DNA of 63,709 nucleotides, the filler included, from Reclinomonas americana ATCC 50394 (taxonomy: Eukaryota): assembly GCA_048213135.1 (NCBI GenBank). It is 10 parts of 10 records of this genome, joined end to end, with 100 filler letters (N's around TTAATTAATTAA, not from the genome) between each part and the next. Parts side by side here need not be neighbours in the genome. Positions count along the whole stretch, not along the records: positions 1 to 3,218 come from AFZH01017137.1; positions 3,319 to 18,025 come from AFZH01017138.1; positions 18,126 to 22,491 come from AFZH01017139.1; positions 22,592 to 31,114 come from AFZH01017140.1; positions 31,215 to 38,399 come from AFZH01017141.1; positions 38,500 to 45,176 come from AFZH01017142.1; positions 45,277 to 49,854 come from AFZH01017144.1; positions 49,955 to 57,533 come from AFZH01017145.1; 2 more parts are not named here. One strand, given 5' to 3'. Made by a program: the position numbers and the translations under genes. Positions 1 through 54,973 of the stretch are shown here, one piece after another (positions within the stretch are counted from its first letter, which is position 1; each line of letters opens with the position of its first letter). The notes beneath the pieces were generated by a model that saw only the letters and a program-made list of their open reading frames with translations, made no database searches and was not told the DNA's origin.

Positions 1-892
1 TGTGTGTGATATGTGCAGTGAGCGTGATCGCACCATGAACATTGTGGTCGACAACGCCGGCTTTGAGTTGATGACGGACCTGTGCTTGGCCGACTACTGT
101 GTGAGCTCGGGTCTCTTTGCCGAGTGTGTGTTGCGTGTCAAGGGCCACCCGACATTTGTGTCGGATGTGACTGTCGACGATGTGGAGTGGACGCTGGAGT
201 TGATGCACAGCAGCGCCGGTTGGTTACACACGTTTTTACGCACCCTGCCTCCCTTGTTTCATCCAACTCATGCTCGCCGTTTGTTGCAGATGATACCGTC
301 AAGGCGTGCGCTGCGAGGTGGCGCGACCATTTGAGCAGCGGTCGGTGGCGAGTGCAACCCGATGTCGTTGCGTTGCCGTTTGTGCTGCATCTGTTGTGTT
401 GCTTCGCTCACTCCCGTCATGCAGTACTGGTGTCAGCCGTACGAGTTCTGGACGATGCCAGTGGATATCCGGGACCAGCTGCGCAAGTCATGCGCGCTGT
501 GTTTCGTCAAGGGCGATGCCAACTATCGGAGGTGTCTGGGCGAGTTGCGTTGCACACACGCACGCACACACAAGAAGTTCTCGTGTCCGACCACTGCTGC
601 TGTACACAGTCGTCCGTGGCCACACCAGACGCCGTTTGCGGAAATCTGCTCGTACTGGCCATGCCCGGTGGTGTGCTTGCGGACGCTAAAGGGAGTTGCG
701 TGATGCACCGCGCGCTGTTTGCCACCGCCGGCTGCGCTGATCTCATCCCCCACCCACTCCCAGGAGGTGGCTTGTGGACTCACCAACCAGGATGCGGTCG
801 CTCGCGCGACACTAGAACCCGACTGGATGGTCACAGGACGGTGGGGAGTGGTGCATTTTTGCAATCCTGCAACAGGAGAGTGCGACGAATAG
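1..892 (+). CDS. ARMT1: Damage-control phosphatase ARMT1/DUF89 family, 3' part (5' end outside window)
   Basis: Spliced translation gives IVVDNAGFELMTDL, VKGHPTFVSDVT, FVKGDANYRRCLGDRPW, LRTLKGEVACG and WMVTGRWGVV. Introns at 219-289, 367-424, 544-609 and 695-763; stop TAG 890-892. Confidence 0.88.
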
Positions 893-910
893 ACGCTGGC
901 GTTTGTGATT

Positions 911-2492
911 TCATTCGGGGTACAGTTGACGTAATTGAGCGAGCGTACAAGGCGCGTGGGTGATGGGGCACTTCTTCTCCCGCTCCACGTAGTCTCGTGC
1001 ACACCGAGTGCAGAACACAAAGCCACTCGGCAGCGCCGACATCTCCTCGCTTCGCGGTTGACTGCACAGTGCACACAGCGTCGGATCGGTGGGCACCGGC
1101 ATGCCTTGCGCGGCCGGCTGCACGGGTTCCGGTGGTGGAATCGACCGTGCTCGCCGTGAGCGACCCTGTGTAGCAGAATTGTCAGGAGATGGTGGGTTTC
1201 GGCACCATACTGGACGTCGCACACGCACATCGCTGCTGGCGCTCGGATCCGACAGCAGGTCGTACTGCGTCTGCGAAGTGCCAGCATAGTACCACTCGAG
1301 CAGCTTGAACAGGAACGACGAGGCCAGCAGCAGCTCGCGCGAGTAGTCGGCCAGCAGGTAGCCGGCACGGAGAGCGTACGCTACCACACGACTGACGAGG
1401 TTGCCGGAGGCCAGCCGTCGCAAGAATCGCTTGTGCTGGCGATGTCGATCGACCCAGTGGCGACGCTGGCGAAAGGCAGTACGCAGTGAGACAGAGAGGG
1501 AGAGAGAACAAACGGGGTATTAACGCACCATGTCCTCCATCGACTGTCGCTCAATCACCAGTCCCTGCGCGTGCAACGACGGCGAGTAGTACCGCGTGTC
1601 ACCAAACAAGTACAACAACTGATACACCAGCACCGCGCCCTCACAGGCAAACGACGCCACTGGGTACGCGACGACAAAACACCGACGCAGCACGGCGCCT
1701 GCCGACACACACCACTCGCGCACACGCTGCAGCGCACTCGCATCGGCAGCCGCCCGCAGCTGAATCGCATCCGGTCGCGGCACATTGGTAAACACAAAGC
1801 CATCCCACTGCACAGTTGCGGGCGACACTGGCGGTGCCGGAGGTCTCCTCGCCTCCTCCGCCATGCGCTGTCGCTCAGCATGGTACCACCGATCCAGCTT
1901 GCGCCTAATGTACGGCAGCAGCACCAAGAAGAAGAGCGACAGTGTGCGATCCCTCGGCCGCATATGCTTGGACGTCGCCCCCAGCTCCGAGGCCGACACT
2001 GGTGGCGACACTGCGCTGTCCTCATCCTCCGCAGTCGCCATCACCGCTGTTGTTGTGGTGGCTGTTGTCGCCAGTGGTCTCAACACGCGAGTGCGCTTCA
2101 GTCCATACAACTGCTCCGCAAACGATCCATCTGTGACTCGCGATGTGAGGGATCAAGTGAGGACGAGGGCCACAAGAGTGAGAGATGCGCACCGAACTTG
2201 TCGAGATAGAACTTTTCCACGAGCAGCCACAGTGCCGTGAACCACTCGTCGTGATAGCGCAGCAGTGGAGCTGCGCGAGGGGCATGTTGCACAAGCCACT
2301 GACGCATGGCGTGTGTGTGAGAGAGAGAGAGAGAGAGCAAGGCGATGCTTGTGATTTGCATGACGAAACGGAGATGAGGAGTCGCACAGCGGGTTGCACC
2401 GAGGGTGAGAAGCGCGACTGTGCGAACAACTCGAAGAATGTGGGTCGCGAGGCGAGTGCCGAGGTGCCGTACTGTGACAGGAAGAGCGACAT
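911..2492 (-). CDS. PEX12: Peroxin-12 (Pex2/Pex12 N-domain plus C-terminal RING)
   Basis: N-terminal RPTFFELFAQ, then DGSFAEQLYGLKR, LLPYIRRKLD, FLFKLLEWYY and degenerate RING CALC..SGFVFCTRC..CPIT; three introns. Confidence 0.92.
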
Positions 2493-2556
2493 GCGTGCAC
2501 GACCGATCACAAGACGGACTGGGACAGACAAGGACGCGACGCGATGTGCATTGCTC

Positions 2557-3218: not shown

Positions 3219-3318
3219 NNNNNNNNNNNNNNNNNNNNNNNNNNNNNNNNNNNNNNNNNNNNTTAATTAATTAANNNNNNNNNNNNNNNNNNNNNNNNNN
3301 NNNNNNNNNNNNNNNNNN
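3219..3318. other. Assembly linker (N run with six-frame stop TTAATTAATTAA); identical linkers at 18026-18125, 22492-22591, 31115-31214, 38400-38499, 45177-45276, 49855-49954, 57534-57633 and 61063-61162
   Basis: Nine identical 100-nt blocks; an artificial contig spacer. Confidence 0.98.
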
Positions 3319-5735: not shown

Positions 5736-7792
5736 TCACTTGTCATGGGCATGCATCGCCATGTATCGTTGCTTTTCGAGTCTCTTTCGCCTCTTGCGCA
5801 CGAGTGGTATGGTGATCATCAGTGCTAATACACTGTATGGTGGTTGATGAGCGATAATGCAATGAGCGAGGGAGGTGACACGAGAGAGGGGGACGCAACA
5901 CGAGCACGCCCAAAGCGATACCGATCCACTTCCAAGGTATGGGCTTGCTAAAGTCCATCGGCTCCTTGTAGTCGGCAAAGTCTGTCGCCCCAACAGTGAG
6001 TTACGAAGCAGACGGCACACACACACGAGCGGAGCAGGAGGAGGCGACTGACCGAGGAAGATCTTTTGCGGCGTCGATCGTTGCAGACCGTGTGTGGTGA
6101 CAAAGGTCGGGATGCCTGCGCATGAAGAGCAAGTCAGATGTGCAACAACATGCCACCTTCTTGGCCCTCTCCCGTGGAATGACGAACCGAGTTCCACGTA
6201 TGCGCGACCATACTTTTTGTGGGGCTCCGGAATGGAGGCCGGATCCACGCTTAACTCGAATGATTCACCGCTCTGTCGACGAAGCTCGTGAGTCCCCTGC
6301 GCCTCTCTAGAGACACACACAAAACACAAATAACCATCATGCCGGCGGTAATGGGCACTTGCAGTTCAAACACATCCGACAGACGATTGAAGTTGAAGAC
6401 GCGCAGTCGCATCTTGTCGTTGACGCGCGTCGAGCAAGTGAATGACTGACGATCGACAAAGTGAGTGTCACGCGTGCTCTCTTGACGGCATCCGCACGAC
6501 GCGCAACTCTGTCGCTGTTCTCGGCCCAATACTTGAAGCGCGCTCGCAGTGTCGCAGCCGTCACCATTTCGTTGGTGTTCTTGATGCGGTAGAGGGTGGT
6601 CGTTGCCTCCTGTGTGCGATCGGCAAAGGGATGAGCTCCGCCCGCTATCACAAAGATGGGAGGGGTGTGCGCGCAACTCCATTCGGGAACGACTGCACAT
6701 TCTCCTCAAACACACAGACGCTGGTGAGATTGAATTGCGTCGGCAAGGTGTCGTTCATCGACGGCAGCAGGCGACACGGGAAGCCGGGAGCGGTGGTGTA
6801 CTTGAGCACGCTGCGCCGAGCATTCAGAAAGAGATCCTGGACGGCGCCTGGCGAAACAACGCAACTCGGTAAAGGTGTGGCACGCCGGTGTCGGCTCGGT
6901 GAACTGCACACGACAGGTGGCCGCACGCCAGCGCTCACAATAGTAGCCGACCCGATCCAGCGGACACGCGCAAAAGTACTGTGGTGCGAGTCAGCAGTGG
7001 CAGTACAAATCAAGAGGACCACACAACAACATCACACCCGACCTGATTGTTTGCCGTGTACGCCGGCACACCGAGATTGGAGCACTCTACGACAGCATGC
7101 ACAAGTGGTCAGCTCTCCCGAGCAACACAACAACGCGACGAGCAGCTGACACGCGCACCGCCATTGATCACATCGGGAGTGCCGTTGGCCCGCGGCTCAA
7201 TCACCTCCTCCGTCGCGCTCACAGAACGCGCCTGCTGCGCTCGTCGATGAGCGCTGGCGGCCGCACGCGCAGCAGCCTCCACGGCCTCCGCTGCACCGAC
7301 ACAGATGAGTACAACTCCCTTTGTCTTACATTCACGCTGTCGACGGCACTCAACATTTCGCCTCTGGTGCAGCACGATCCAGCGCCTGCGCAACCACACG
7401 AATGGACTCATCCAACTGCGCGTACTCTCGACGCACTCGGCGTGGCAGATCACCAAAGAACGCCTCCACAGACGACAACAAGTGTGGCGACGCATTGTCA
7501 TCTGTGACATTGTCATCATAGTCGCGATCGCCCTCTTCCCACGAGGCATACACTCGGCGTCGCTGGGCCACAGGTGGAGGAGGAGGAGAAGGAGGACTAT
7601 TACTGTGTGCGTGCGCCAGTGTGAGAAGAGGCGGGGAGTGGAGAGAGACAGAGGCAATGCAAGCAACTCCTCCACATTGTCGCGAGTGACAAGTGTGAGT
7701 GGGAATGCGCCGCCCACGTACTGCACGCGCTGATCGGCGAGTGCCACGCATGCGCAGGCAATCGCCAGCACGAGAAGCAGTGCTCCTCTCAT
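5736..7792 (-). CDS. Type I membrane protein with signal peptide and EGF-like motif
   Basis: Spliced model: signal MRGALLLVLAIACACVALA; ECSNLG..YFCACPLDRVGYYCE (EGF-like); C-terminal TM WKWIGIALGVLVVLALMITIPLV followed by RKRRKR; stop at 5736-5738. Confidence 0.6.
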
Positions 7793-10116: not shown

Positions 10117-12919
10117 TTAGGCAGACACGTAGCGCGTCTTGATGCTGGTCTTGAGTGCGGCAATTGCCTCCTTGACCTCTTGCGACACATCCTTGTCGAC
10201 CTCGATGATGAGGTAGCCGATTTGCTCGGTGGTGGACAGCAATTGGTTGCGCACGTTGTAATCGGCGAGAACTGTGTGTGGTGAGGGATGAGAAGTGGGA
10301 AGGAGTCGAGCACGAACACGCAAAGGCACACACAACTGTTGTTAATGTCACGCAGCACGCCTGTGGCACAAAGCACAATTTTGCAGTCAGCCAGCAAATC
10401 GCTTCACACAAGAATACACACATTTTTTCGATCACGAACCAGGCCTGTTCTCGTGCACGTTGGTGATGCGACGCCATACGTTGCCGAGTGGGATGCTGAG
10501 GATGGGGAAGTTGACGGAGCCCTGCGTTGAGCCCTCATTGACGAAGCGGATCAACGCATCGGCCACCTCCTCGCCAATCTTGCACTGTGCCTCCTCGGTC
10601 GAGCCTGAATGGTGCGAGAGGTGTCAGAGAGTGGTGGGGAAAGAGAGAAAGAGGGAAATTGCGGAAGAGAGACGCACCGCCAATGTGTGGCGTGAGGATG
10701 ACGTTGCTGCGCAGTGCATGGATGGGGTTGAGGAGAGGTCGGGCAATTGCACGAATGCGCGAGCAAGAATGCACGCAACGGGCAACCCTGCAGCGGCGAC
10801 GAGAATGTCAGGCCATTCTCCAGCGGCTCCACGGGGTGCACGTCCACAGCAGCGCCCTCAATGTGGCCAGCCTTCAGCAGCTCGGCCAGTGCCTCGCAGT
10901 CCACCTGCACGCACGTAGAAGAAGTGCGTCGGTTACAACTTTCCGAAACCAACCGACCAAAGGCCACATCACGCGCACGCAACGACAGTACCACGCGCAG
11001 CGTTGAGCAAGAATGAGCCCTTCTTCATCATGGCGAGTCGCTCGGCATTGAGCAGGTTCTCCGTGTCGGCCGTGGCCGGCACGTGCAGGGTCACGAAATC
11101 GGACTCGCGCAGCAGGTCCTCCAGCGAGCCCACACGCTGGGCGTTGCCAATCGCCAGCTTCGGTACCACATCAAAGTAGATCACGCGCATGCCCAGGGCC
11201 TCGGCCAGCACCGACACTTGGGAGCCTGTGGGAGGAAGGGAAAAGGGAGGGATAAGGGGGAAGAGAAGGGGGGAGAGAAGGGGGAAGAGAAGGGAGAAGG
11301 GGGAAGAGAAGGGGGAAGAGAAGGGGGAAGAGAAGGAGGAAGAGAAGGAGGAAGAGAAGGGGGAAGAGAAGGGAGAGTGTGCGAGAGTGCAGGGAAAATG
11401 AGGGAACTCAGTGAGAGTATATCAGAGATTGATGGTATGTGAGAAGATGTGAGCGCACGAGGTAAGCAAGGAGATGATAACGAGGCGAAGAGGCGCAGTG
11501 AAGGGAATGAACAAAGACAGAGACAAGAGAGGGTGCGAGAAACATAGAGAGAGGTCAAGCGAGCAATGCAAGGTGACGACAACGATATAACGAGGGCCAG
11601 AGATGAGAATGGGAAAGAAGAGAGCCAAGTAAGCGGGTGGTAGAAAGAAGGAGGGAACAAGGTAAGCCAGGAGAGGGCTGCAGAGAGATCGAGCAAGAAA
11701 CAGTAAGTGTAAGCGAGAGAGAGAGAGAGAGAAAGAATAAGTGCAAGTGTGTGAGTGAGAGAAAGAGAGAGAGGGCAAGCAAGGGCAAGGGGAGACACTG
11801 AAACAACGTGACGCAGAGAGAGAAGAATTGACAAGAGGGCAGTAACAGGAGAGTCGTTGATGCAACACACCGACATGACCAAAGCCGACAATGCCGAGAG
11901 TCTTGGCGCGCACCTCGTAGCAGGCGGTGGCAACCTTACGCACAAATCGCACAGTGAGGAAAACGACATCACCAAGATCGAGAGAGTTCCGCCCAAACCT
12001 TCTGCCACTCGCCACGGTGCATCTGCTCGCTGCGCATCGACGCTTTCCGCGCCAGCATGATGACCTCGGCAATGATCAACTCGGCCACACTACGCGTGTT
12101 GGCAAACGGCGAGTTGAAGACGGCCACCTGCATCGACACGCTCTTCCATCACCGATTTCTCCGACACCAACCTCACAACAAGAAAAAAAGCACGCACCGC
12201 TCGCCTCTGCGCCTCGTCGAGGTCCACCTGATCCGTGCCGATGCAGAAGCAGCCGACCGCCAGCAGACGGCGACCCGCACGCAGCACCTCGCGAGTGATC
12301 TGCGTCTTGCTCCTGCCCACACACATGAGTTGTCTGCGCGCGCGCGGGAAACATATCAAATCACGGACCGCACTCCGACAATGTGCACATCCTGCACCGC
12401 CTCGATGAGCTCGGCCTCAGTCATGGCCTTCTTCGACACGCGCACCTGTGGACAGAGAAACGAGCGCGCGGGAAACGAGTGAGTACCCCAAAGCGGCATG
12501 GCCATGTCCATGGCAAACCCTTCCACGCACGCACACACTGACAACACAGAGAGAGATAGCAGCAATGTGCACTCATAGAGAAGAAGAGCAGAGAGAGGGC
12601 CACGACGCGGAACATCCCTCAATGCTCAAGCATCGCAGTGCAGCAGTCGCCTCCAGCAAGTCACACGCGTGGCACGTGCAGCAAATGCTCTCTGTCTCAC
12701 TGAGACACACACACACACACACACTGTGTCGCCCTGCACTCCACACGCACGCACCGTGAACCCCTCCGCCTCAAACAACTCAATCGCACGCGGATGCACT
12801 CCATCACACAGCAGCACACGGATCGGATCCGTGGTCCGCGTGAACAGCTGTCCTCGTGAGCTCGACGCGCCCACAGACCCCAAAGGCACCGGTGACAACG
12901 ATCCACTCGCACTCGCCAT
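10117..12919 (-). CDS. PHGDH: D-3-phosphoglycerate dehydrogenase (SerA/Ser3 type with ACT domain)
   Basis: GCFCIGTDQVDL, VFNSPFANTRSVAELIIAE, KTLGIVGFGHVG, SDFVTLHVP, AAVDVHPVEP, NVILTPHIGG and a C-terminal ACT-like region. Confidence 0.95.
11255..11375. repeat. 12-bp tandem repeat GGAAGAGAAGG(G/A) in a purine-rich tract within a 645-nt PHGDH intron (11226-11870)
   Basis: Directly visible repeated GGAAGAGAAGGG/GGAAGAGAAGGA units. Confidence 0.85.
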
Positions 12920-12994
12920 TCCTCGATCAAAGTCAGAAGCACTTTGATCGTCCGACGAATGTACTTCAATTACTCGAGTTCTTTCCTTTGCGCG

Positions 12995-40972: not shown

Positions 40973-43900
40973 TCACAGTGCGGCGGTGTGCAAGTCAAAA
41001 ATTGCTGGTGGGATCACATCGGCCACCACCTTGCGCGGAATGCCGGCCAGCTCACACAAGTGCTCCAGGAACACGAGCGTGTTGGTCACGTCGACCGGCA
41101 CCACCGGTGCCTTGGAATCACTGCGAAACACACTTCAGCACTTCCACTACGAGCAACGGGACGGGGAAACACACAAACCGTGGTTGCGCCTGCGCCGATT
41201 CGACCAGGCACTTGACGTGGTGTCCAAGCAGCGTCACAAACTCCACCGTGGTCGAGTAGTGGAACTGCTTGAGCAGCGTGGCCACGCCGGCGGCCAACAC
41301 CGAGCCGTCGAACTGGTCGTTCTTGGTGCGAACAATCAGAGTTCCTGCACGAATGGTGATGAATACGCACACGACGAGCAGGCCAAGACACCGCCAACAT
41401 GTCAAAACGTACCGAGACGCGGGTCATACTGCATGCGCGACAACTGGTAGGCCACATACAGCGACAGCATGGTCGCGAACTCCGGCAGCGGGTCGTGCGT
41501 GATGTAGATCTTGGCGAACGCCGGGTCCATGCCACTCGACTGGAACAACTCGGTGAGATCCGACAGCAGCGTGTTCTCCTCCGGTGGATAGTGGTACGTG
41601 TCGGGGCTGACGCGCGGGATTGTCAATAGGGAGCTCTACGCAGGAAGGGGAGGGAGGAGGCACACTCACCTGTGGTAGTGGGCGCGAATGTCCTTCATCA
41701 GCGACATGTTGAAGGCATCCAGTGCACACGACAGCGACGTTGAGTCGAGTTTGCAAAGGAACTGTCGGCACACACGAGTGAGAAAGCAGACTTGTGTGGT
41801 GCGCAGGGAACCAGGAACGCAACGTTGAGCTCGTTGGCAATGTGTCGCCGAATAAACTGCGCTTGACCGACAAACAAAATGGCAGCTGCGCAAGAGGGAA
41901 AATTGAGTACACAGCAAGTCAAACAGCAAAAAGCTCAAGGGCGAACGCACAAGTGATAAAGCCGAACTGCTTGTGCAGTCTGTGCGAGGAGTGCGAGAAC
42001 ACACGAGCACCCTCCATGTTGAGCGTGTTCGTCTGGTTGCACATCTCGTTGATGGCCTTCAGGTGCTCCTTCAGCTGACGATCCACCTGCGCTGCCTAGA
42101 TGAGACCGCGCAGTGGCACACACACACACACAGGCAACCAAACAAGTCACCTCACGGCCGTAGTGCGTGCAGAAGCGTTGGAGACAGTCGACAATCATGA
42201 ACGAGAGCAGACTGTCGACGCCGCTGAGACCAAACACTCCGACACTGCTGCGCACCAGACTGAAGGTGCGGATGCCCACAATCTCGCTGCACGGTTGCAC
42301 GTCGGGATGAGAAAATGCGAAGGAACAGGGGAACAGAGGACTAACAAAGACAACATCCGGGATACACACCGTCCGGAGTTGTCGAACCAGGCAGTCATGG
42401 GGTCGACGTATGTGACGCGACGCGGATCCGTTTGCGCGAGAAGCTCGCGCGTCAGGCGACCCATAAAGTTGGTTGAGTGTCTACGAGCGGCGGCACCATG
42501 AGGTCGTGCGGAGGCACGGGGAAGAGGAGTTGACCGCACGGGGACGCAACTCATCGGTGGGTGGGAAGCGGGGAATGGGAATCACTTCGCTCTGGTACTT
42601 GGACTGCCAGTCGAGCACCTTGGTGCGCAAGAACCTGTGGGCGCGGAGCGGGTGAGGCGCATGAGGTCGATGAAGCGCACACTCTGCCTACGTACCGATT
42701 GCATTCCTGCTCCACATTGAACGCAATGGTGCGCGACATTTCGTTCTGCCAGATGCGCAGACTGAACACCGCAAGCAAGTTGGTGAGGAAGGAGTCAATC
42801 GCAACAGACACACGCACGAGCGCACACACACACACGCACCCGTAGATGCCGATAAAGTCCTGAATGTACTCAAAGGACTTGAACACGCCGCGCAGTGTCG
42901 TGCCAAGCTGCTGCAGGCGGTCTTCGAACTCGTCCACACGCGACGAGCGGAACACCAACATCTGGTTCAGCGAGCTGGCCAACTGGCGCACAAGTTCCTG
43001 CCGAGCGCAAGCATACGCACCCACAATTCAGAAGCGAGGGCAATCATAGTGGGAGAGGGGGAAAATGCACACCTTGCGGATACCGTCCTCGAGAAGCTGC
43101 TTCGGGTCGACACTGACAACACCCATCAGCGTCGTCTCCATGGCCAGAATGCCTTCCGTGAACTTGGAGATTTGGTGGGTGTATCGGGCCAAGCGATAGC
43201 GCTCTTCTAGTTGTGCGTAGCTGCGAACGGCAACAAGTGAGATGACTGCTCCCTCACCCGCCTTCTCAAAAACGAAAAACGCAACTCCTTCAACTCGGCC
43301 TTGGGCAATCTGGTCGGCAACTCGCGAATTTCGTTGGTTTGCAGATGAATCAGCTCCTTCAACAGCTCAAACATGCTGATCGGAATGATTTCCAGCACGC
43401 GGCGCACGAATTTCACCAGCTCGCCTGCAACAGCATGAGCGCGCGCGAGTCAGCAGCCGACATCAACCTCACAAATAAGGGGGGCGCGTAGCAGACACAC
43501 CAGAGTAGTAGTTCGAGACGGAGACCAAGTCGGGTGAGTTGGCCTGCGTGATGCGCACCAGCGGAATCTCCATCATGGAGGCCAGCTTGAGGAAGGTGGA
43601 GCGCAGCTTGATCACAATGTACGGGTCTCTGCATGAGGAGCGGCAGGATTGGGGGTCAGTGACGGCAGCGGAGGGAGGACAAGATGGCGACCTGGCGACG
43701 CAACTGCTTGAGCATTTCCTGCATGAGTGGCACGTACGCGTTGATGATCTCCCAGGCGTAGGAAATATCGCCGACCTGTTCGCACGCACGAGTGAATGAT
43801 CATGCAATCGCGCAGAATGCAAACACGGGATGGTTCGTCTCGCACCTGCGCAATGGTGACCAGCACTTCTTCGCGAACGTTGACGATGCGGATCATTTTG

Positions 43901-45131
43901 CGCAGCAACTCGCGGGTGTCGATCAGATGCTGGCGCACTTGCAGGTTGGACTCCACTTGGTGGAACTGCTCGACTTCCTCCAGCGCACGAATGAGCTCCT
44001 GAATCTTGCGGCCAGCCAGCGTGGAGTCGTCAAAGTCCAGCTCCGTAATCTTTTGTGCAATGTCCTGGAACCACTTCATCAGCTGCTCGTCCTTGTTCTT
44101 GGCCGACAGCACCTTTTCGCCACCGTAGTAGTCCGCTGTGCGTGGCATGTTAGTACATGTCGAGTGATGGGCGGTGTGGTGGCAAGACGACACAAGTCAA
44201 CGCACCCAGCTCCGACATCTTGGACGAGGCCGCCGAACGGTTGGCCGTCCACTTGTCGACCTTCTCGTCGAGCAGCTTCTGGAACATTTCACGCAACAGG
44301 AACTCGAACTGCGACACGTTCAGCAGCAGCACGAGGATCTCCTGCGGACCGGGGCCACCCAACACGATCTCGGCAATCTTCTTCTTCTCGCAAATGCGGT
44401 GCATGATGATCCAGCGGAGGGTGACGTTGCAGTTGCGCAGGCAGTTCAACATGCGGCTGATGTTGTCGAGCACAAAGTCCTCCACCAACACGCCCTCCGT
44501 GAGGTAGTGAGCGACCTCCTCTCGCAGCGAGACCATGCGGTCCCAGTGTGACACGGCTGGTGCACAAAATGAGACACACACAGAGAGAAAGAAGAAGAAA
44601 CATCATGCCAGGGGACACACACCAAGTTCGCGAATCTGCAGCGGCTGCACAATGTTGTTCAACGCATCCGAGGCGGCCTTGTAGCCGGCCCAAGCAGTGG
44701 TCAGATCGACCGTGTAGCCCATCCAGAAGGAGATGACCCAATTGTCGGGGAAATGCTTGTCGACAATTTCACGCATGACAGCCTGCATCATGAGAGACGA
44801 GTCAGGAACTCGTTCGCGCCAACACACAGGTGAGAAGGGGTGGGTGAGACGCAACTCCCTCGCGACTCAAAATGTGCGGAGCGAAGTACAGCAAAATGTA
44901 CAGCATGGCGGCCTGGGTGGCGAGCGCCACTGAGCGGTGGTGTGGGCTCGGGTAGTACGACGTCTGCTGGTACAAGTCGTCACTTCGCAGACGACCAATG
45001 AGCATCACAATCAGCTCCTGCTTGACGGTGTAGCGGCCGAAATACTCCTCGGGGTAGTTCGTCGGCACCTTCTTGCCGGGTTCGTAGCCCGAGTGACGCC
45101 ACAGCTTGAACACGGCATCGGCGTTGTCGAC
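40973..45131 (-). CDS. WASHC5: Strumpellin (WASH complex subunit 5), 5'-partial
   Basis: [82 protein letters not shown]. Confidence 0.96.
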
Positions 45132-45276
45132 CTGTGATTGATGAGTGAAGAATGGATGAGCCAGCCAGCCAGTGCGNNNNNNNNNNNNNNNNNNNNNNNN
45201 NNNNNNNNNNNNNNNNNNNNTTAATTAATTAANNNNNNNNNNNNNNNNNNNNNNNNNNNNNNNNNNNNNNNNNNNN

Positions 45277-46101
45277 AGCATGTGTGTGTTGTTTCGTTGC
45301 TCTCCACCTCACCCCATCGTGAGAGCAGCACTGCAGAAGCTTCGTTCGCTGGAAGAGACCTTGGCGGCGCTCCCGTCCATCGGGTTCATGGGAATGGAGG
45401 AGCCACTGGCCTCCATGGTGGCCAAGCACGTGCAGCGTCGGGTGCCGTCGATGGGCGTGCTGTCGTGGGATTCTTTCGAGGACGTGTGTCTGCCCACCAG
45501 CATCCAGCTGCCGCCAGTCGACACTCTCGACCCGGAGCTCTTTCACCTGCCGTCCACGCTGCTGCCGGACGACTGGAGAGAAGTCAACGATTCTTGGGTC
45601 TGCATGTCGTGAGTGTGCGCGCATCGCAGCAGCACACTCTCTACTCACCTTCACACCATGTGCAGGCTTACAGCGACGCGACGACGGCTGCACTCCTCCG
45701 CCATCTCATCGAGCACACGGTCACGTGCGGCGTGCGCACCGTCAGCAGCAACGAGCTCGTCGCCTTTTCCCTTCGTCAGCTTTGTATCATCGGTTTTCTG
45801 TTGTCGCTCCCCACGAGCGCACCACACTGACTGTGCGCGCAGACTCGATGGCAGCATCGGCATGGGGCACGTGGATCCTGCTTTCCGACGGCATCGAGTC
45901 GGCCGCGCCGCCCTGAATGTGCTCAGCCGACGTGTGCGCGAGTTGCAGCCGTTCCTGTACGGCACCGTGCGGCCGGACAACACGGCCTCCTTTGGTCTCA
46001 TTGGCTCCATTGGCTTTGTCAAAACCGGTGGTTTGCGTGTGTGGTTCACGATGGCGTTGAAGGGCAGTGGTGGTGGTGGTGCGCCACGAGCGAAATTGTA
46101 A
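45277..46101 (+). CDS. GNAT acyltransferase (GLYAT/FR47-like) copy 1, 5'-partial, C-terminal AKL
   Basis: DWREVNDSW, QLDGSIGMGHVDPAFRRHRVG, NTASFGL..GF; ends PRAKL. Confidence 0.8.
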
Positions 46102-46133
46102 AGCGATCGATCCGAACATTTGCCGTCCTCTCG

Positions 46134-47448
46134 ATGAGCGCACAGGAGTTGGCCTTTGAGGAGACAGCGCTGTGGCCACTAAAGGCGCATGAGAGGCACC
46201 TCAGTTTTTCCGAGGTTGCACGGTTGATGGAGACGACAGAGAATGAGCGCGACAACTTGCATTCCTCCGTTGCGTGTGCGATCACAAGTTTGTGCACGCA
46301 CACACATACACGCTGTCGTGCTCATGATGAGGCGCACAGACGTGGCGCCTGTTCTTCTGGCTTCGCACAGGTGTGCATTGGTCTCATCAACGCACTGCAA
46401 TTTTTCATGTTGAATCACTCTGTGCATGCGCGACAGGAGGCATCACTCGCGCCACTCTTGTCACTGTGAAGAAGACGACGCATCGCTTTGTGCTGCTGGA
46501 GGCCGGCCTGACATCGCACCGCTACGTGGTGTACGTGTCGCAACGCGTGCTGGACAACGTTGAGCAGACGGCCGAGGTGGCCCGAGCGATTGTTGCTTTT
46601 GTCATGGCGCGACATCCGGCGTCGATGGTGGAGCGCGGCTTTGTCGGTGAGCAACTACGTACCTACATGCAGCAGTGGAGACAAGCCCACATGTGTGCGC
46701 TGTGCAGACAGTGCGCAGGCGGCTGCCCATCAGCTTCCTCCAGTGGGGTTCATGGGTGTCCAGGAACCACTCGGCTCGCTGCTGATAACGGCGATGCGAA
46801 AGCATCATGCACCGCACGTGCACCGCCAGCTGCATCTCTCGTATCAGTCGCGTTTTGAGGACGTGTGTGTGCCGGCCAGTGTCGACCTGCCAGCTGTGGA
46901 CCCAATCGATCCCACCCTCTTCCATCCCCCGGAACCCCTCAGACCCGACGACTGGAAGGAAGTGGACGACAAGTGGGTTCGTAGTTAACGTTGTAAAGCG
47001 ACACCGTGCAGCACCGGCTTTGCATTCACGGGTGCACGCAGCCGTACCGCAGTGCAAGCTCTCCAGCGCTCATACGGTACCTCATTCAGTCGACCACGAC
47101 GCTCTCGGTACGCTCCAGCACCAACAACCAGCTCGTCGCGTTCACCCTTCGGCAGTTGCGTGCGGTCGCAAAAGTCGTTCGCTTCCTTCTTGTCTCATGC
47201 ATGCTGGCAGACTGGACGGAACAATCGGCATGGGGCATGTGGAGGAGCACGTGCGTCGGCATCGCCTCGGACGCGCCACGCTCAACCTCATGTGCCGCCA
47301 GGTACGAGCCGCCGGCCATCCCGTGCTCGGCGGCGTGAAGAGTGGCAACGAGGCCTCGTTTTCCATGCTCGACACCCTCGGCTTTGTGAAAATGGGCACC
47401 ATGCGGCTGTGGTTAGAGTTCTCCCCGACACCCACAGCCAAGTTGTAA
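46134..47448 (+). CDS. GNAT acyltransferase (GLYAT/FR47-like) copy 2, C-terminal AKL
   Basis: DWKEVDDKWPY, QLDGTIGMGHVEEHVRRHRLG, NEASFSML..LGF; ends PTAKL. Confidence 0.82.
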
Positions 47449-47523
47449 AAACAAGGGACGAAGAGTGCGAGAGAAGAGTGGAGAGAGACGTTCGTCCTGC
47501 CGTCAATTCCTCCTCGCGTCACC

Positions 47524-48831
47524 ATGGCGTCATCGTGCACCACCTGCACACTATTGTCGCCTGAGCAACGCACCCCATCAGCAGCTGTGAGTGACTTTGC
47601 CGCCGTGGCCAAGTTGTTGGAGTCGCCCACGGACAAGTCGCGCAACTATCACCTGTCAGTTGCGTGTCTCCCACATCTCCTCATGCGCGCGCCACTCACA
47701 CTTCCATCGCGCAGACATGGCGACTGCATTGTCTGCTGCACACTGGTAACATTCGCTCGCTGCCGCTGTTGCGAACGAGATGATGCATGTGAGACCGAAT
47801 CCGCATGCGTACTTGTACAGGAGGCGTCAGTCGCGCAACCCTTGTGACCACGGCTGCCGCGCAGACGTTTGTGGTGGTGGAGATGGGCTTGACGTCGGCT
47901 TCGTACTGGGTGTTTGTGCCGCAGAGCACGCTGCAGAACATGGAGGACGCACTGCGCATCACCTCAGTGATTGCTGACTACTTGATGGAGCGACACCCGG
48001 CATCGATGATGGAACGTGGCTTTGTGAAGCAGTTGGATGGTGTGTGTGTGCAGGCGTGCGTAAGCATCTGCACGCAGCTGATTCATCGCGATTGCAGACA
48101 TGCAGGGACTGCCAGTCATCTCGATCTCGGGCTGTGAGGAACCGCTGGCCTCGCTGCTTTGTTCCGCTCTCCTCAAGCGACTTCCGGCGCATCAGGTCGA
48201 CTCGTCGGGTTCGTTTGACGATATTTGCTTGCCGCCGAGCATCGCCCTCCGCGACATCAAAATCGACGAGCACCTCTTCCTTCCGCCGACACCGCTGCGC
48301 GAGGAGGACTGGAAGGAGGTGGATGACAAGTGGGTGAGTGCGACCTGCGCGCGTGGTACAGTAGGTGTACGACACTGACACATGCGCACGCGCGCACACA
48401 CAGCCGTACAGCAGCGCCAGCTCGCCGGCACTGATCCGGTACCTCATCAAGCACTTTCCCACATTGTCGGTGCGACTGAAGGCGACCAACGAGTTGGTGG
48501 CTTTCACCTTGTATCAGTTGCGACTTGTGTGCACAAGTTTTCTACACCGCACTGCGCCAACTCACTTGCATTATTGCCGTGCAGGTTGGACGGAACCATC
48601 GGCATGGGTCATGTGGAGCCTCCGTACCGTCGATACGGCCTGGGTCGTGCGATTCTGAGCCGTCTCACTGAAGAAGTGCGGCGGAGACACCTGCCGTACG
48701 GGTGTGTGAAAGACAACAATGAGGCCTCGTTCGGGTTGACCGGCTCTCTTGGGTACGTGAAGACCGGCGTGGCACGGGTGTGGTTCAGCATGGTGCCCAA
48801 GGCGCCGGCGCCCATGAGAGCAAAGTTGTGA
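47524..48831 (+). CDS. GNAT acyltransferase (GLYAT/FR47-like) copy 3, C-terminal AKL
   Basis: DWKEVDDKWPY, QLDGTIGMGHVEPPYRRYGLG, NEASFGL..LGY; ends MRAKL. Confidence 0.82.
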
Positions 48832-49221
48832 AGGAATGCGCGCGGTGAGATCGAATGCAGGAAATGAACTGCGAATGTTGGTTACGTACGTGGAGACGAA
48901 CATGTGCAGCAACTGCACTTTTCCCCTTTTGTTGCTGTTCTCACTATCACATCAACAACACTTAGCAGCACCCAAAACAGGATCTGCCCCGCCCCGCGGC
49001 GGTGGGTGCTTTATTTTCAGCATGTCCATTTGCCGGATTTCGTGTGCATGACCGATTTTGTCACATTAGGAGCCGGGAATGGGACATGTCGCATACCATT
49101 TTTTCTTCGTCCTTCGGTGAGCGCGGACCACCACCCCTCCCACCTCCCTCCCCTCCCCCTCCATTTCTAATCGCCTCTCCATACAGCATTTCAACAACAA
49201 CAACAACCAACATCAACAACC

Positions 49222-49854
49222 ATGGCCAACGCTCGCAACACAAGTACTCTCCCCTGCTATCATTACCACCGTGGCGGCTGCCGCGCCGCTGACTGCGCCT
49301 ACCTGCACCTGCCATGGGACCGTGTGCACGCGTGTCGCCAGGGCGACCAGTGCACGCAGCGCCTGTGCGGCTTCAAGCACCCGGGTGACGTGAGCTCGCT
49401 GGCAGGCGGATCCGCCCCTCCGTCGCCGCCGCGATCGACCGGCGCCGGCTCGAGTGCCTCGACGTCTCCGCGACCGAAGGCATCGCCCAAGGCGACGGCT
49501 ACGGCGACGGCTGCCGCTGACGGAAGTGGCACGGTCACCGACCGCAAGACGTACGTGAAGACGCGGGTGAGCGAGAAGCGTCAGGCCGCGGAGCTGCCGC
49601 TGCGAGTGATCGCCGTCGTCGACTCTTCTGGCTCCATGGCCGGCTTGCGCATCCGCGCCGTGACGTCGGCGCTACGTGCGGTGGTGGAGGAGTACATGAC
49701 GGACCGCGACAGCCTCGCGCTCGTGCGCTTCAACACCACCGTCACGGAGATGATGGGACTCACGCCGATGCAGCGCGGTGCCAACCGAGACGTGTTGGAG
49801 TCGCAGCTCCGCGAGCTGTGCACTCAGTGCAGTGGTGGCACTGCGCTGTGGGAC
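49222..49854 (+). CDS. Tandem CCCH zinc-finger + vWA domain protein, 3'-partial
   Basis: CYHYHRGGCRAADCAYLH and CRQGDQCTQRLCGFKH; vWA MIDAS VVDSSGSMAG, LVRFN and GGTALWD. Confidence 0.8.
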
Positions 49855-49954
49855 NNNNNNNNNNNNNNNNNNNNNNNNNNNNNNNNNNNNNNNNNNNNTT
49901 AATTAATTAANNNNNNNNNNNNNNNNNNNNNNNNNNNNNNNNNNNNNNNNNNNN

Positions 49955-50444
49955 GGAGACCGTCCGGCGTGAGCGCGAGCTCCCGACGGTCTGCACGACC
50001 ACCACCACCACTGATGCCGACGGCGCTTCGGGATCCGGAGTCCGCCGGTTTGGCGGTGCTCGCGGTGGCCGTGTCCGCGACCGCTCCGGGTCGTAGAAGC
50101 AAGCGTGCAGTGCCTGCTCCTTGTGTTTTTTCCTTTGTTTTGTTCCTCTGTAGATTGTACAAGTAATACAAGATGTCTTTATGCAAAAGCTGCGTGATCT
50201 CCTGAAAATCGAGGCATGTCGAACATACAGATTCACGGATGCTCCATTCAAGAGAAATTGCAAGCCTCAGCAGACGCAAACTCTGCTGACATATGGAACC
50301 ATTTGGGCCAACAAGTTCCCGGCAAATAGCAGCCAATTGCAAGCGAGAGAGAAACGGAACGAATTCGAACACAAGCATGATTATGGCGTGTTCTTGTGCA
50401 TCACCACTTGAATTATGCGAACCCTTCGAGTTCACTTCTTGCAT
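49955..50444 (-). CDS. Hypothetical protein, possible F-box-like N-terminus, 3'-partial
   Basis: IIMLVFEFVPFLSRLQLAAICR weakly resembles an F-box; ORF runs into the gap. Confidence 0.25.
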
Positions 50445-50767
50445 GAAGCTGACGCGTGCGCTGCGCTGTGCCTAGACACGCACTCGCTCGAACTCGAACA
50501 GCTGTCAACTGTACATATCCGGACCCGCAACGGTATCCGAGCGCCTGTACGTCATTCTCCCTGGCACACATAATCAATGCGCTCTGCAGGTGCCAGCGCA
50601 CTCGCGATCCTTGCCCTCATTCTCGCCAATCCGCTCCATTTTGTCGATCGACGAAAACCAATCAATTGTTCCACACTGTGTGTTCGAATTTTGTTCTCTC
50701 TTTGCGCACATCGCACACAAGTCCCTCTCGACACCTCACCCCCACCCCACCCCCACCGCTGCTCGAC

Positions 50768-52280
50768 ATGTCGGCACTCCTCATGCGGCTGGGTGGGAGC
50801 GCCGTCACAAGTGGCGAACAATCGCTTCTCGCACTCTTCTCGCAGTCACGAGCAGCGACAGCCGACTTCTCGTTCCACACACGCACTCTTCTGGCGCCGC
50901 AGCAGTCGCGCCCATCGGCTGACATTGGCGACTTTGCCTCGGTGGCCACGTTGTTAATGGACACACCGGGTGACAAACGACTCAATGATCATCTCTCTGT
51001 TGCGCGCAGTGATCACACACTGACACACACACACTCTCTCGCATGCTCGTGATCGCTCACCTGCTCTTTCCCTCCCTCTCCCTCTCTGTGAGTAGACCTG
51101 GCGACTACACGGCTTGCTTCACAATGGTCAGCGTTCGTCCAAAATCCACACACACTGAGATGCTCTGAAACTCACTCTGTTCTCTCTCTCTCTCTCGCGC
51201 GCGCAGGGGGCATCAATCGCGCTGTGCATGTTTCCGCCACGGCACGACCCTCGCTGTCGCCATCCTCGCCGTCATGTCACTTTGTGTGTCTGGAGTCGGG
51301 TCTCATGTCGCCGCGGTACTGGGTGTACATGCCGCCGGCGGTGGCGCGCGACCCGGAGCACACGCGACTGACGGCGCACGCAGTCATAGACTATGTCACA
51401 CAGAGGCATCCTTGGTCGATGGTCGAGCGCGGCTTTCTCAGCGAGCGTGGTGCGCACGCCATCGTTTCCCGCTGTGGTGGCTCGTGTGACTGACTGTGAT
51501 GCATGATCACAGACTTGGAGCAGCTGTGTGTGCGTCATGCGCCGTCGGAGGTGCTGCCACACTTGCCGCCCATCTCGTTCATGTGGATGGAGGAGCCGCT
51601 GGCGTCGGCTGTGCGAGCGGCGGCCGTGACGCGGCTGCCGACGCATCACGTACCGTCAGCTCTTTTTTCCGAAGACATTGTCGTGCCACACGACTCCAAG
51701 CTGCAGGCCCCCGACCAGATCGACAGGCATCTGTTCACCGAGCCAGCCCCGTTGCACGTTGACGACTGGAGAAAAGTCAATGACAACTGGGTGCGCCACA
51801 CGTGCACTGCTGTCTTGAATCCTGCACCTGTTGGTGTTCTCATCTCTTGCCTGGCACGCACAGCCGTATCGCAATCCCAGCTCACCGGCACTGATCCGTC
51901 ACCTAATTAATCGCGGACCAACGTCGAGCATGCGCCTGAAGGCGACCAACGAGCTGGTTGCATACGTGCTTCACCAGTTGCGTTCGAAGTCTCATCCATT
52001 TTTTTGCCACTCTCTCTGTTTCTGTGCCGCTTACCACACATATGTACGCAGAGTGGACAACACCGTGGGCATGCTACACGTGGAGCCAGCGTACCGGCGC
52101 AATGGCGTCGGCACAGCGGTGCTCTGCGCGCTGTGCGATCACGTACGAAGTGCACAAGGCAAGGCCTTCTTCGCCGTGCAACGCGACAATGCCGCCATGT
52201 TTACGCTGATCGAGCCTCTCGGATTCGCCCGCACCGGTGTAATACGCATGCTCTTTGAGCTCGCGCCCAAAGCGCCATGA
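50768..52280 (+). CDS. GNAT acyltransferase (GLYAT/FR47-like) copy 4, no PTS1
   Basis: DWRKVNDNWPY, QVDNTVGMLHVEPAYRRNGVG, NAAMFTL..LGF; ends APKAP; shares intron positions with copies 2-3. Confidence 0.82.
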
Positions 52281-52535
52281 ATTGTTTAAAAAAAGTGCCA
52301 ATGTTTATGTCCTCGTCCTCCTGTATCACTCGTCTCGCCGGCGTTGGTGCGTCAAGACCGTCACTCCTCACTGTCTCTCTCTCTCTTTGTGCACTCAGTT
52401 GCACGTGCAATGCACCACCTCACTGCCTGTGTGTGTGTGTGCGTGCGTGTGTGCGTGTGTGTTGTTCTCGCCATGGCACATCGCATGCACACTCACCCCC
52501 CCTCTCTCTCTCCCTCTCCCTCTCAGAACAGAAAC

Positions 52536-54973
52536 ATGATCCGCCTGACGGCGATTGCCTACTTTGTGGTCACTCTAGGCTCCACCTACGGCCTCTTCTA
52601 CCTGGGCTGGCTGGGTGCATGGTGCACTCTGCTCTCACTTGCCACCTGGATCGCGCTCGCTGTGTGGGTCGCTGCTCCGTACCGCAACCGCGATGGTGAA
52701 GTGGTGCATGTGGGCGGCTCGGTGCCACCCAAGAAGGCCTGGAACCCGCTGCGCCTGCGCACCAAGTTCCACTCGTCCAAGCTGCCAAAGGATGTCGATG
52801 TGGTGGTCGTTGGAGGCGGCATGTCGGGATTGACCACGGCGGCGATTCTGGCGCGCTCCGGCAACCGTGTGGTGGTACTCGAGCAGCATGCGACTACAGT
52901 CGGCGGCGGGTGAGTTGTCTCTCGCTTGTTTCCACTTTTTTTTCGCTGACTTCTCACACTCGTGACGTGTTTTTCCGATGGCGCTTTGCAGCTCGCACAT
53001 GTTTGAGCTTGGCGCCAACTACAAGTACGACTCGGGTCTGCACTACACGGTGCCGTGGCACGGCCCGCTGTTCCATGTTGCGTCGGCGGTGGTGCTGGGA
53101 GGCGAGGTTGTGCCGGTGCTGACTGCGATCTGCAGGTGTCGATTGGCCACAACCCCGTCCAGCTCGAGCTGATGGGTCAAGATGATCCGCTCGGCATCTA
53201 CGACAAGGTGTACCTCGGCGACTCGTCGACCCCGTTCAATATTCGTCCGAAGGAGGCCCACATCCCCGACCTGATGAACCAGTTCCCGCACGAGCGCGAG
53301 GCTCTGGAGCGCTACATGAGCGTCTCCACCTCGTTCATGAAGACCACCTTCCTCTTCTTCATGTGCAAGGCCTTCCCCGTGTGGCTGCAGCGCCCCTTCT
53401 GGAAGCTCTTCCTTGGCGGTTTCGAGTACTGGGCCTCCAAGACCGGTGAGTGTGTGTGTGTGTGCATGCACAGAGGGAGTTTTCTCCCACTCACGCACTT
53501 GTCGTGCAGCGACTGAGGGTCTGGCCGACCCCAAGATCGGCATCAAGGATCCGCGTGTGGTGGCCATCATCAACGCTCTGTGGCTGGACACTGGCGCTCC
53601 GCCGGACACCTGCTCGTTCTTCCTGGCCACCTCGGTCTTCCGCGGCTTCCCGCGCTATGGTGGATACTACCCGCGTGGTGGATCGGAGAGCATGGCGGCG
53701 GCCCTGGTGCCGGTGATTGAGGATGCTGGCGGTGCAGTGTTCTGCGCGGCTCGCGTCGACGAGATCATTGTGGATGAGAGCAACCGCGCCACTGGCGTGC
53801 GCATCGAGGGCACCACCATCAACGCCCGCAAGTACATTGTCAGCTCGGCTGGATACCACGTGACCTTCCGCAACCTCGTGCGCCGTGCCGTCATTGAGCG
53901 CAACAAGATTCCACTGAAGCTGCCGGGCTGCGACGACGGACCTGGCATGGTCATGATCAACGCCGGTTTCCGTGGTTCGGAGAAGAGCTTGAAGCTCGCC
54001 AACGCCAACGTGTGGCACTACCCCACCACACCCGACGGCGACATGGTGGCGCCGTTGCGCCGGTGAGTTTGTTTCCTTGATAGAAACGAAACATGTGTGA
54101 TACACGCTGTCTCACACCTGTAGTGGCGCAGATTCATGGACTCGGCGGACCCGCTGCGCGAGCGACCTGTGGAGTTCCCACCCGTCATGATCACCTTCCC
54201 CTCCATCAAGGACCGCGACTGGGCCACGCACCACCCCGACAAGACCACGGTGCAGATTTTGATCCCCGCCCGCTACGAATGGTTCCTCAAGTGGAAGGAC
54301 GAGACGCCGGAGGTGAGCGACAACAGGCGACGGATCTGCGTGCTGGTGTGTTTGGTGACTCAATCTTTCGTATTGCACAGCACCGCGGTGCCGAGTACGA
54401 GGCCGTCAAGCGCGAGTGGCGTGACTGGGGTCTGGCCGTGCTGTACAAGCACTTCCCGCAGCTCCGCGACGCCGAGGACTTTGTTGCGTCGCCGCCGCCG
54501 TCACCACTACTTCAGTGTCGACCACCTCGCAACTGAATTGTTTGATGTGCCTCTGCAGGTCGATGTGTCGACTCCGCTGAGCATCCAGAACTGGCTGGGC
54601 GCGTCGAAGGGCACGCCCATTGGCCTCAACCCGTCACCTGAGCGCTTCTGGTACGTCTGCTTTAGTTCTCCGCTACGCACAATTTGCGTCTCCTCTCTGT
54701 GTCGCTCACCCCGCTCGCGTGTGAGCAGCAAGTGGGAGGTCATGGAGCGCCTCGACTGCAAGACGCCGATCGAGAATCTGTGGATGACTGGCCAGGACAC
54801 GCTGTTGATGGGAGTGACAATGGCGCAGGTGAAGTGCAGTCAGACGGAAGTGCGCGCGCGCTCTCTCCCCACGTGTCTCACGTCCCTCGCAGGCCACCGG
54901 TGTCATTACTGCCTTCCGCATGCTCGGACTGTTTGCGACCTTCAAGTACATTTTGCGCAACGTCTTCTGCTGA
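52536..54973 (+). CDS. RETSAT: Retinol saturase / carotenoid oxidoreductase family FAD enzyme
   Basis: N-terminal TM, DVVVVGGGMSGL..VVVLEQH, YDSGLHY, GGYYPRGGSE, TFPSIKD, STPLS and TPIENLWMTGQD. Confidence 0.85.

Follow-up and report, generated by a model that had tools for sequence, protein, structure and literature searches.

How can an intron be recognised when the exon before it does not end in G? The question arises in a 63,709-base stretch of the Reclinomonas americana genome (G+C 57%), analysed here as a whole and called the window, where a sequence-only reading had divided the 5′ splice sites (donors) into two classes. As we define them, class A carries G at intron position +5, and class B carries T at +3, a base other than G at +5, and G at +6. 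The reading proposed that class B never follows an exonic G, and both the division and the rule stand up in our analysis: class B makes up 38 of the 137 short introns (40–140 nt) that we predicted in the window, or ∼28%, and none of these 38 follows G, nor does any of the 19 class B donors validated by a second method. The class B observation is real and statistically strong within the window. All 23 coordinates named in the reading, 21 for class B and two for class A, carry the sequence attributed to them.

Two donor classes and the base before them

The excess of the 7-mer GTTGCGT, its strand bias and the base before it can be assessed without any gene model. Counting both strands, the window holds 49 copies against 15.48 ± 4.32 in dinucleotide shuffles, and none of 100 shuffles reached 49. 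The copies are preceded by A (18), C (17) or T (14) and never by G; the 8-mer GGTTGCGT has no copy, with 3.22 expected. Where gene orientation is known from Pfam matches, 39 copies lie in the sense direction and two in antisense, leaving eight unoriented (binomial p = 8e-10). The near-variant GTTGCGC shows no strand bias (sense 12, antisense 15) and was called as a donor in only 6 of its 34 copies.

Donors were called in two ways. The gene finder is a dynamic-programming method whose codon usage was trained on 2,576 codons under Pfam matches, and its first pass used only codon usage, GT, AG and an intron penalty. Blind to the motif as this pass was, GTTGCG came out as the most frequent donor hexamer (14/117), and with an acceptor matrix added it accounted for 16–17 of 117–119 donors. 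The final version, to which a donor matrix treating positions as independent and a prior on intron length were added, predicted 162 introns; the 137 of 40–140 nt have a median length of 70 nt, and the remaining 25, all above 140 nt, were dropped before the classes were counted. Among the dropped introns are those with class B donors at 15462 and 17207 (both after A and validated by the paralog), at 5899 (after T) and at 2594 on the minus strand (g/GTTTCGG, the slash marking the exon–intron junction). The last of these, the sole class B candidate preceded by G, was rejected: the upstream frame continues through it to a stop codon, and we read the intron as a false join of PEX12 to the upstream gene. 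PEX12 most likely starts at a downstream ATG, with its first intron beginning at tcc/GTTTCGT (2369), and what we take to be a likeness to the PEX12 N-terminus supports a start near that position.

The second method was a protein-to-DNA spliced aligner that accepts any GT..AG intron at a flat penalty and is blind to all other donor features. Its guides were eight homologs for strumpellin, four for Tudor-SN, eight for the dynein heavy chain and, for each acid phosphatase, the paralog; a donor recovered by at least 75% of the guides was taken as validated. Admitting GC donors gave a spurious gap-filling intron (32532) and a tie between 34176 and 34179, and the counts use GT donors only. This full aligner replaced a local-window rescoring of junctions, which favoured candidates that pulled more conserved flank into the local window. 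A homolog search with the N-terminal exon of the acid phosphatase gave no match.

Across five genes, motif-blind guided alignment validated 19 class B donors. No gap interrupts the alignment of the predicted strumpellin protein with its eight homologs at any of the five class B junctions, conservation in the DNA alignment of the acid phosphatase paralogs halts exactly at the 7-mer, and Pfam 2-Hacid_dh_C spans the intron at 10983 with its positions 50–131 and then 133–162. Class B sites are real splice donors. Of the 21 plus-strand class B donors named in the sequence-only reading, 14 were recovered by guided alignment and 17 by the finder; for three (544, 695 and 35119) the support consists of reading frame and family motifs.

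The base at −1 separates the classes sharply. In the short-intron set it is A in 16, C in 11 and T in 11 of the 38 class B donors and G in none, and it is G in 66, T in 16, A in four and C in three of the 89 class A donors; the other 10 of the 137 donors fit neither class. The difference in −1G (0/38 vs 66/89) has p = 3e-16, and in the validated set, with 0/19 for class B vs 26/31 for other donors, p = 1.4e-9, confirming within the window the association of a non-G base at −1 with +3T and +6G to which the sequence-only reading had pointed. Seen from the exon, 19 of the 24 validated donors that follow a non-G base are class B. The finder cannot have made the dependence on −1, since its donor matrix gave each position an independent score and favoured G at −1. 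The finder did err elsewhere, taking 42680 for 42695 (cg/GTACGT), 31507 for 31492 and 33681 for 33653 and creating the false intron at 2594; its position matrix overlooked true GTACGT donors, 42695 being an example. Wrong class A calls after T lay in GT-rich tracts, so the fraction of 66/89 probably understates −1G in class A.

Five validated donors outside class B also follow a base other than G. Two are doubtful: at 32552 three distant guides skip an insert, each with a different acceptor, and at 14597 the guided call conflicts with the finder. The remaining three are a/GTGAGT at 31358–31363 (+) in Tudor-SN (3/4 guides), a/GTGCGT at 33653–33658 (+) in the same gene (4/4 guides) and a/GTGCGT at 59112–59117 (−) in the dynein heavy chain (8/8 guides). 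Their existence makes the −1 rule one-way, as the sequence-only reading had concluded from the two Tudor-SN sites, to which 59117 adds a third case.

Class A is loose, G/GT(G/T)NG(T), and class B is rigid, H/GTTGCGT, where H is A, C or T. The 7-mers of 42 curated class B introns are GTTGCGT in 30, GTTGCGC in six, GTTTCGT in three and other sequences in three. In other eukaryotes +3 is usually a purine; in class A it is A in only 4/89 donors and T in 20/89, with G/GTTGGT, G/GTTCGT and G/GTTTGT all in use, and +4 is C or T in 65/89.

Beyond the donor, the two classes have much the same introns. Median length is 67 nt in class A and 68 nt in class B, in an overall narrow distribution (10th–90th percentiles of class A, 56–80 nt). 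CT(C/G)A(C/T) occurs in the last 50 nt of 59/89 class A and 31/38 class B introns and in 17% of shuffled tails; the branch A sits 17–19 nt from the 3′ end and the acceptor is (C)AG in both classes, and the first base of the next exon shows no difference between them. All 38 short and all 19 validated class B introns begin with GT and end with AG. The intron at 43704 coincides in position and phase with one in an amoebozoan-like metagenome contig (L002), where the donor reads g/GTACTCC. With GT..AG ends, a YTNAY-type branch motif and a frame colinear with homologs after removal, class B introns show the features of the U2 type. The shared length, branch motif and acceptor indicate that classes A and B are two donor forms within one ordinary U2-type population of introns, and the 3′ end gives no sign of a second spliceosome.

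Evidently unused copies of H/GTTGCGT lie inside conserved exons at 130–136 (+), in exon 1 of the ARMT1-like gene, and at 44291–44297 (−), in a strumpellin exon. Both are without a downstream branch-plus-acceptor signal, showing that the 7-mer alone is insufficient for splicing.

Codons at the junction

The sequence-only reading supposed that the first G of a class B intron substitutes for a missing exonic G, and the coding sequence supports this. Among the 18 phase-0 class B introns in complete genes, the last codon is one for Cys, Asp, Asn, His, Phe, Tyr or Ile in 10, none of which has a synonym ending in G, and in four more it encodes Gly or is the Arg codon AGA, where a G ending is rare in the codon usage of the window. 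At phase-0 class A introns, 21/26 codons end in G vs 18.5 expected from codon usage. Phase 1 is depleted in class B (6/37 vs 33/88 in class A, p = 0.02). A direct comparison comes from two tandem purple acid phosphatase paralogs at 12959–14993 and 15156–17510 (+), which have the same eight intron positions. At intron 6 the first copy has acg/GTGAGC (14281–14286, +; finder, guided and DNA alignment) vs tct/GTTGCGC in the second (16721–16727, +; paralog-guided and DNA alignment). The codon bias, together with an intron 6 that switches class with its −1 base, indicates that the exon decides the donor form. Class B supplies six of the eight donors of copy 1 and seven of the eight of copy 2, and intron 1 differs in length between the copies, 76 vs 379 nt. 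A second donor form of this kind would free the exon from ending in G and so relax the 'proto-splice site' limit on intron persistence.

Pairing with U1 and competing explanations

How such a donor is read can be approached through its pairing with U1. The best available mechanism is a +1-shifted U1 register, routine for class B and with cleavage still before GU, to which we give a probability of roughly one half. The helix that usually joins U1 with exonic −1G, +1G and +2U would form one base deeper in the intron; intron +1G would fill the slot of the missing exonic G, +2U would be mismatched, and class B positions +3 to +7 would replace +2 to +6, while the cleaved bond would remain the one before GU. 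A slide of one base makes GUUGCGU identical to GGUGCGU, the class A consensus over −1 to +6, at all but one position. Paired with AUACUUACCUG, the human-type U1 5′ end as printed in PMC4856993, from which the U1 of the window organism may differ, the number of Watson–Crick pairs per class B site rises from 2.7 in the normal to 4.9 in the +1 register, and that per class A site falls from 5.8 to 2.5.

Several results weigh against this mechanism or limit the ground on which it stands. With human-type U1 the mean duplex energy of class A is −5.86 kcal/mol vs −3.85 kcal/mol for shuffled sites, and that of class B is −0.84 vs −2.82 kcal/mol, weaker than shuffled. The routine shifted recognition claimed by the sequence-only reading thus has the pair counts in its favour and the duplex energy against it, and the simplest shifted register fails unless U1 differs. 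A pure one-base shift also predicts no rigidity of the kind seen in class B, with +4G in 34/38 and +5C in 37/38, compared with +3G in 64/89 and +4C in 34/89 of class A. Nor does shifted pairing itself forbid −1G. Synonymous codon frequencies predict 2.86 G endings at the 18 phase-0 class B sites and none is seen (P = 0.005); AAA, GTC, ACT and TCT are used at class B junctions where AAG, GTG, ACG and TCG are common. The exclusion of G at −1 exceeds coding need, and its total absence is explained by none of the models considered here. Finally, 10 of the 19 validated class B donors come from two tandem paralogs, all results come from one 64-kb window, which is a narrow base, and the junctions were all derived from homology, paralogy and coding potential.

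An altered or additional U1 is probably required. Both classes prefer C or U facing U1 nucleotide 5 and G facing nucleotide 6, so that the partner RNA is predicted to read ...ACGCACC... and not the human-type ...ACUUACC...; it could be one member of a set of U1 variants, or a U1 whose 5′ end is altered to G at position 5 and C at position 6. With a hypothetical ACGCACC U1 the duplex energies become −9.45 vs −6.05 kcal/mol shuffled for class A and −6.68 vs −4.89 kcal/mol for class B, and +1G of class B pairs with C9 in 23/38 sites. To our knowledge, U1 positions 5 and 6 are part of a sequence that is almost invariant across eukaryotes. The poor pairing of class B with human-type U1, its rigidity and the absence of −1G make the caveat in the sequence-only reading, that a variant U1 or U6 might be needed, the likelier interpretation. 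The Rfam models gave no match to the 64-kb window at gathering thresholds and none at E ≤ 1, and no snRNA gene was found in it. More tentatively, the two classes may form a two-register donor code, in which G must face U1 position 9, U1 has evolved to ACGCACC, and −1G is actively excluded by an undescribed proofreading or cleavage-fidelity rule.

Rigidity is what one expects of sites matched to a dedicated RNA, and class B could instead be read in its own normal register by a second U1 (...ACGCAAC...), another U1 reading class A. A hypothetical end complementary to class B gives −10.7 vs −4.5 kcal/mol for shuffled sites, with +1G pairing with position 9 in 38/38 sites, an energy fit even better than that of the single ACGCACC U1, and the diplonemid Sulcionema specki has a pair of U1 genes whose 5′ ends differ (PMC12621601). 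A second U1 leaves the absence of −1G unexplained too, however, and the consensus sequences of the two classes are one base apart when slid, which makes a single partner more economical; we consider a dedicated U1 rather unlikely. The absence of −1G bears harder on a reading in which the register is normal and a single base of the intron, +3U or +5C, is bulged. G/GTTGGT donors, which differ from GTTGCGT by the C only, do exist in the window, and bulged registers were validated in human cells (PMC4856993), but in such a register −1 still faces C9 of U1 and −1G should be favoured, as against 0/49 motifs and 0/19 validated donors, so a bulge seems clearly improbable.

The remaining explanations would set class B apart from ordinary splicing altogether. 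Given the demonstrated finder errors listed above and the indirect derivation of the junctions, class B might consist of gene-model artefacts, with cleavage elsewhere or no intron at all; yet motif-blind homology-guided alignment chooses the same GT for 19 class B donors, GT and AG stand at every class B intron where a one-base shift would demand other ends, and neither the strand bias nor the downstream branch motif depends on gene models, leaving this a very improbable account. Still less probable is a separate minor-spliceosome-like system with its own snRNAs. U12-type introns also form a second class with a rigid 5′ motif and no preference for an exon-terminal G, and their 5′ consensus is (A/G)TATCCTT. 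None of the 42 curated class B introns, which begin with GTTGCGT or its variants, has that motif, no distinct branch site was found in class B, whose branch motif, distance from the acceptor, acceptor and length are all as in class A, and 28% of introns would be an extreme proportion for a minor system. The identity of the intron starts over 7 nt might finally suggest copies of a mobile introner element ending in GTTGCGT, but this we find scarcely credible: the 42 class B interiors, compared all-vs-all, gave 15 non-self matches in 1722 ordered pairs, and the 12 matches listed are 13–16 nt long, mostly from one GT tract, apart from one reciprocal 45-nt 80% TC/CA-rich pair. Introns alignable over most of their length were not found among them, paralogous class B introns retain the 7-mer only, and the intron at 43704 occupies a position common to a distant eukaryote.

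The +1-shifted register that we prefer has a counterpart in human genes, reportedly described by Roca and Krainer in 2009, where such sites are rare and number a few dozen. Like class B, the human sites have G at +6 and not at +5, pair poorly with U1 in the normal register and better when slid by one base, are still cleaved before GU and follow an exon that does not end in G. They are a rare exception, whereas class B amounts to ∼28% of the short introns of the window, and unlike them class B pairs with human-type U1 below the level of shuffled sites. In its available text, PMC4856993 describes shifted-register human donors as earlier work and prints a +1 test oligonucleotide, ACAGUCAAGUAUA, i.e. 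ACA/GUCAAGUAUA, compared with GUUGCGU here. The bulge and asymmetric-loop registers in the same text resemble class B in that non-canonical U1 pairing extends the site to +7 and beyond, but they keep −1 facing C9 and tolerate or favour −1G, which class B lacks. For more than one U1 recognition sequence per cell, the S. specki genes and the human variant U1s (PMC3561869, available text) provide a precedent, although the portions of these sources available to us report no link to a second donor class with dependence on −1. For six diplonemid species other than Diplonema papillatum, PMC12621601 gives the donors as (G)/GTATG, or G/GT in S. specki. The window is unlike D. papillatum, which has 1.6 introns per gene (PMC10161547), unlike Andalucia godoyi, which is intron-poor (PMC7050145), and unlike Amorphochlora, whose G+C is 27% (PMC12730881).

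A GTTGCGT donor motif is not described in the available text of PMC4856993, PMC12621601, PMC10161547, PMC7050145 or PMC12730881, and a search of ∼8.4 million papers and preprints for the motif as a whole word gave no splicing paper among the matches listed, as judged from titles and the starts of abstracts, figure logos being unsearchable. We thus found no printed description of the motif. Metagenomes returned eight strumpellin loci, and four of them (L001, L002, L004 and L006) were aligned. L001 and L004 are essentially intronless, with no intron or, with two guides, one. For L002 and L006, the Clydonella protein gives a better strumpellin alignment than the window protein does, and these loci, which do not come from close relatives of the window organism, have no class B donor in 10–11 introns. 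They are Clydonella-like amoebozoan sequences of 56–57% G+C, with short introns that begin GTACGT, GTATGT or GTGCGT, often after a non-G base, and three of their intron positions are common with the window strumpellin.

Should RNA data confirm the +1-shifted register, about one intron in three would naturally be read one base out of register here, which elsewhere is known from rare human sites alone. The uncoupling of U1 recognition from the choice of cleaved bond could then be tested directly, as could the importance of the exon-terminal G; the shifted register predicts either altered U1 positions 5 and 6 or a second U1. A gene finder that has only one donor matrix will put class B junctions in the wrong place; ours missed 4 of the 21 plus-strand donors of the sequence-only reading.

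Class B donors along the window

The window comes from a flagellate protist rich in introns. About 20 protein genes, named by Pfam matches on open frames, lie on both strands of the window. They include an ARMT1-like phosphatase, PEX12, thioredoxin, a WD40 protein, PHGDH, the two tandem purple acid phosphatases, an ammonium transporter region, Tudor-SN, MOSC, a radial spoke head protein, strumpellin, four GNAT/FR47-like repeats, an FAD oxidoreductase, a cap methyltransferase and the dynein heavy chain.

The ARMT1-like gene begins the series with c/GTTGCGT at 367–373 (+), called by the finder between exons that match Pfam ARMT1 159–219 and 242–275. Its a/GTTGCGT donors at 544–550 (+) and 695–701 (+) were assigned from the reading frame and family motifs; the finder took 532 in place of the former and passed over the latter. 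In PEX12, c/GTTTCGT at 2363–2369 (−) agrees with the reading frame and has a branch-plus-acceptor signal downstream. The finder also called a class B-type t/GTTGCGT at 5893–5899 (−), whose 859-nt intron has a doubtful acceptor and was left out of the counts, and, as calls of the finder only, a/GTTGCGC at 6501–6507 (−) and 6671–6677 (−). Both PHGDH donors cited in the sequence-only reading, c/GTTGCGT at 10773–10779 (−) and 10977–10983 (−), were found again by the finder: at the first the joined frame continues into NVILTPHIG, and at the second 2-Hacid_dh_C continues across the intron.

All acid phosphatase donors lie on the plus strand. In copy 1, a/GTTTCGT at 13301–13307 and t/GTTGCGT at 13707–13713 and 14158–14164 were obtained by both paralog-guided alignment and paralog DNA alignment; c/GTTGCGT at 13502–13508 was obtained by paralog-guided alignment, with paralog conservation ending at the motif, and c/GTTGCGT at 14780–14786 was called by the finder where paralog conservation ends. 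In copy 2, the paralog-guided a/GTTGCGT at 15462–15468 opens the 379-nt intron. Three donors, c/GTTACGT at 15966–15972, c/GTTGCGT at 16164–16170 and t/GTTGCGC at 16602–16608, come from paralog-guided and paralog DNA alignment, and a/GTTGCGT at 17207–17213, with its acceptor at 17291 or 17436, from paralog-guided alignment and the finder.

Downstream of these, a/GTTGCGT at 18405–18411 and 20467–20473, t/GTTTCGT at 18760–18766 and a/GTTGCGC at 21067–21073, the last following AAA (Lys), are plus-strand calls of the finder only. The ammonium-transporter region at 23059–28468 (−), an Amt-cyclase fusion in the sequence-only reading, was badly modelled by the finder, which alone called a/GTTGCGT there at 28160–28166 (−). 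This region probably has further class B donors in the sense copies of GTTGCGT at 27886 and 26520 and of GTTACGT at 27785 and 24113.

The class B donors of Tudor-SN, all on the plus strand, were recovered to different degrees. For a/GTTGCGT at 32802–32808 all four guides agree, and for t/GTTGCGT at 32981–32987, with an acceptor at 33044 or 33074, three of four do. At 34176–34182, c/GTTGCGC was chosen by 4/4 guides under the GT-only rule; a GC 3 nt downstream ties with it if GC donors are allowed. The donor c/GTTGCGT at 31492–31498 was recovered by one of four guides, the closest (P0018), and has the best local score, the finder having taken 31507. In the MOSC gene, c/GTTGCGT at 35119–35125 (+) opens a 65-nt first intron on the evidence of the reading frame and a TTCTCAC branch motif; the exon after it matches MOSC_N 3–30, and the finder began the gene at 35176 instead. 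Next come a variant c/GTTGTGT at 37456–37462 (−), from the finder only, c/GTTGCGT at 39183–39189 (−) in the radial spoke head gene, called by the finder and followed by an exon matching Radial_spoke 82–174, and a/GTTGCGT at 40566–40572 (+), from the finder only.

In strumpellin, on the minus strand, c/GTTGCGT at 41817–41823 was recovered by 8/8 guides with a gap-free alignment across the junction. The other four donors are all a/GTTGCGT, recovered by 6/8 guides at 42544–42550 and by 8/8 at 43279–43285, at 43698–43704, the position shared with L002, and at 44849–44855. Among named relatives of a strumpellin exon, EukProt 'Heterolobosea sp. BB2' comes closest, at 70% over 111 residues, and is followed by Andalucia, Entosiphon, Euglena and Willaertia, which makes a Discoba affinity likely.

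The four tandem GNAT/FR47-like acetyltransferase repeats occupy 45280–52280 (+). The finder alone called a variant a/GTTGCGA at 48517–48523 (+) and, in the GNAT repeat gene, a/GTTGCGT at 51977–51983 (+); sense GTTGCGT copies at 46269, 47155 and 47659 have no intron assigned, and the gene models of the region are poor. The FAD oxidoreductase has t/GTTGCGT at 53077–53083 (+) after CAT (His), called by the finder, and at 54483–54489 (+) after TTT (Phe), called by the finder already in its motif-blind first pass. On the minus strand, a/GTTTCGT at 55399–55405 and t/GTTGCGT at 56621–56627 and 57281–57287 come from the finder only, the protein guides disagreeing at the last, and t/GTTGCGT at 57848–57854 in the dynein heavy chain was recovered by 7/8 guides.

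Nine identical fillers, each of 44 N, 12 bases and 44 N, interrupt the window at 3219–3318, 18026–18125, 22492–22591, 31115–31214, 38400–38499, 45177–45276, 49855–49954, 57534–57633 and 61063–61162, and those inside genes (the Tudor-SN 5′ region and dynein) blur the local gene models. The commonest 7-mers of the window are GT/CA and CT microsatellites.

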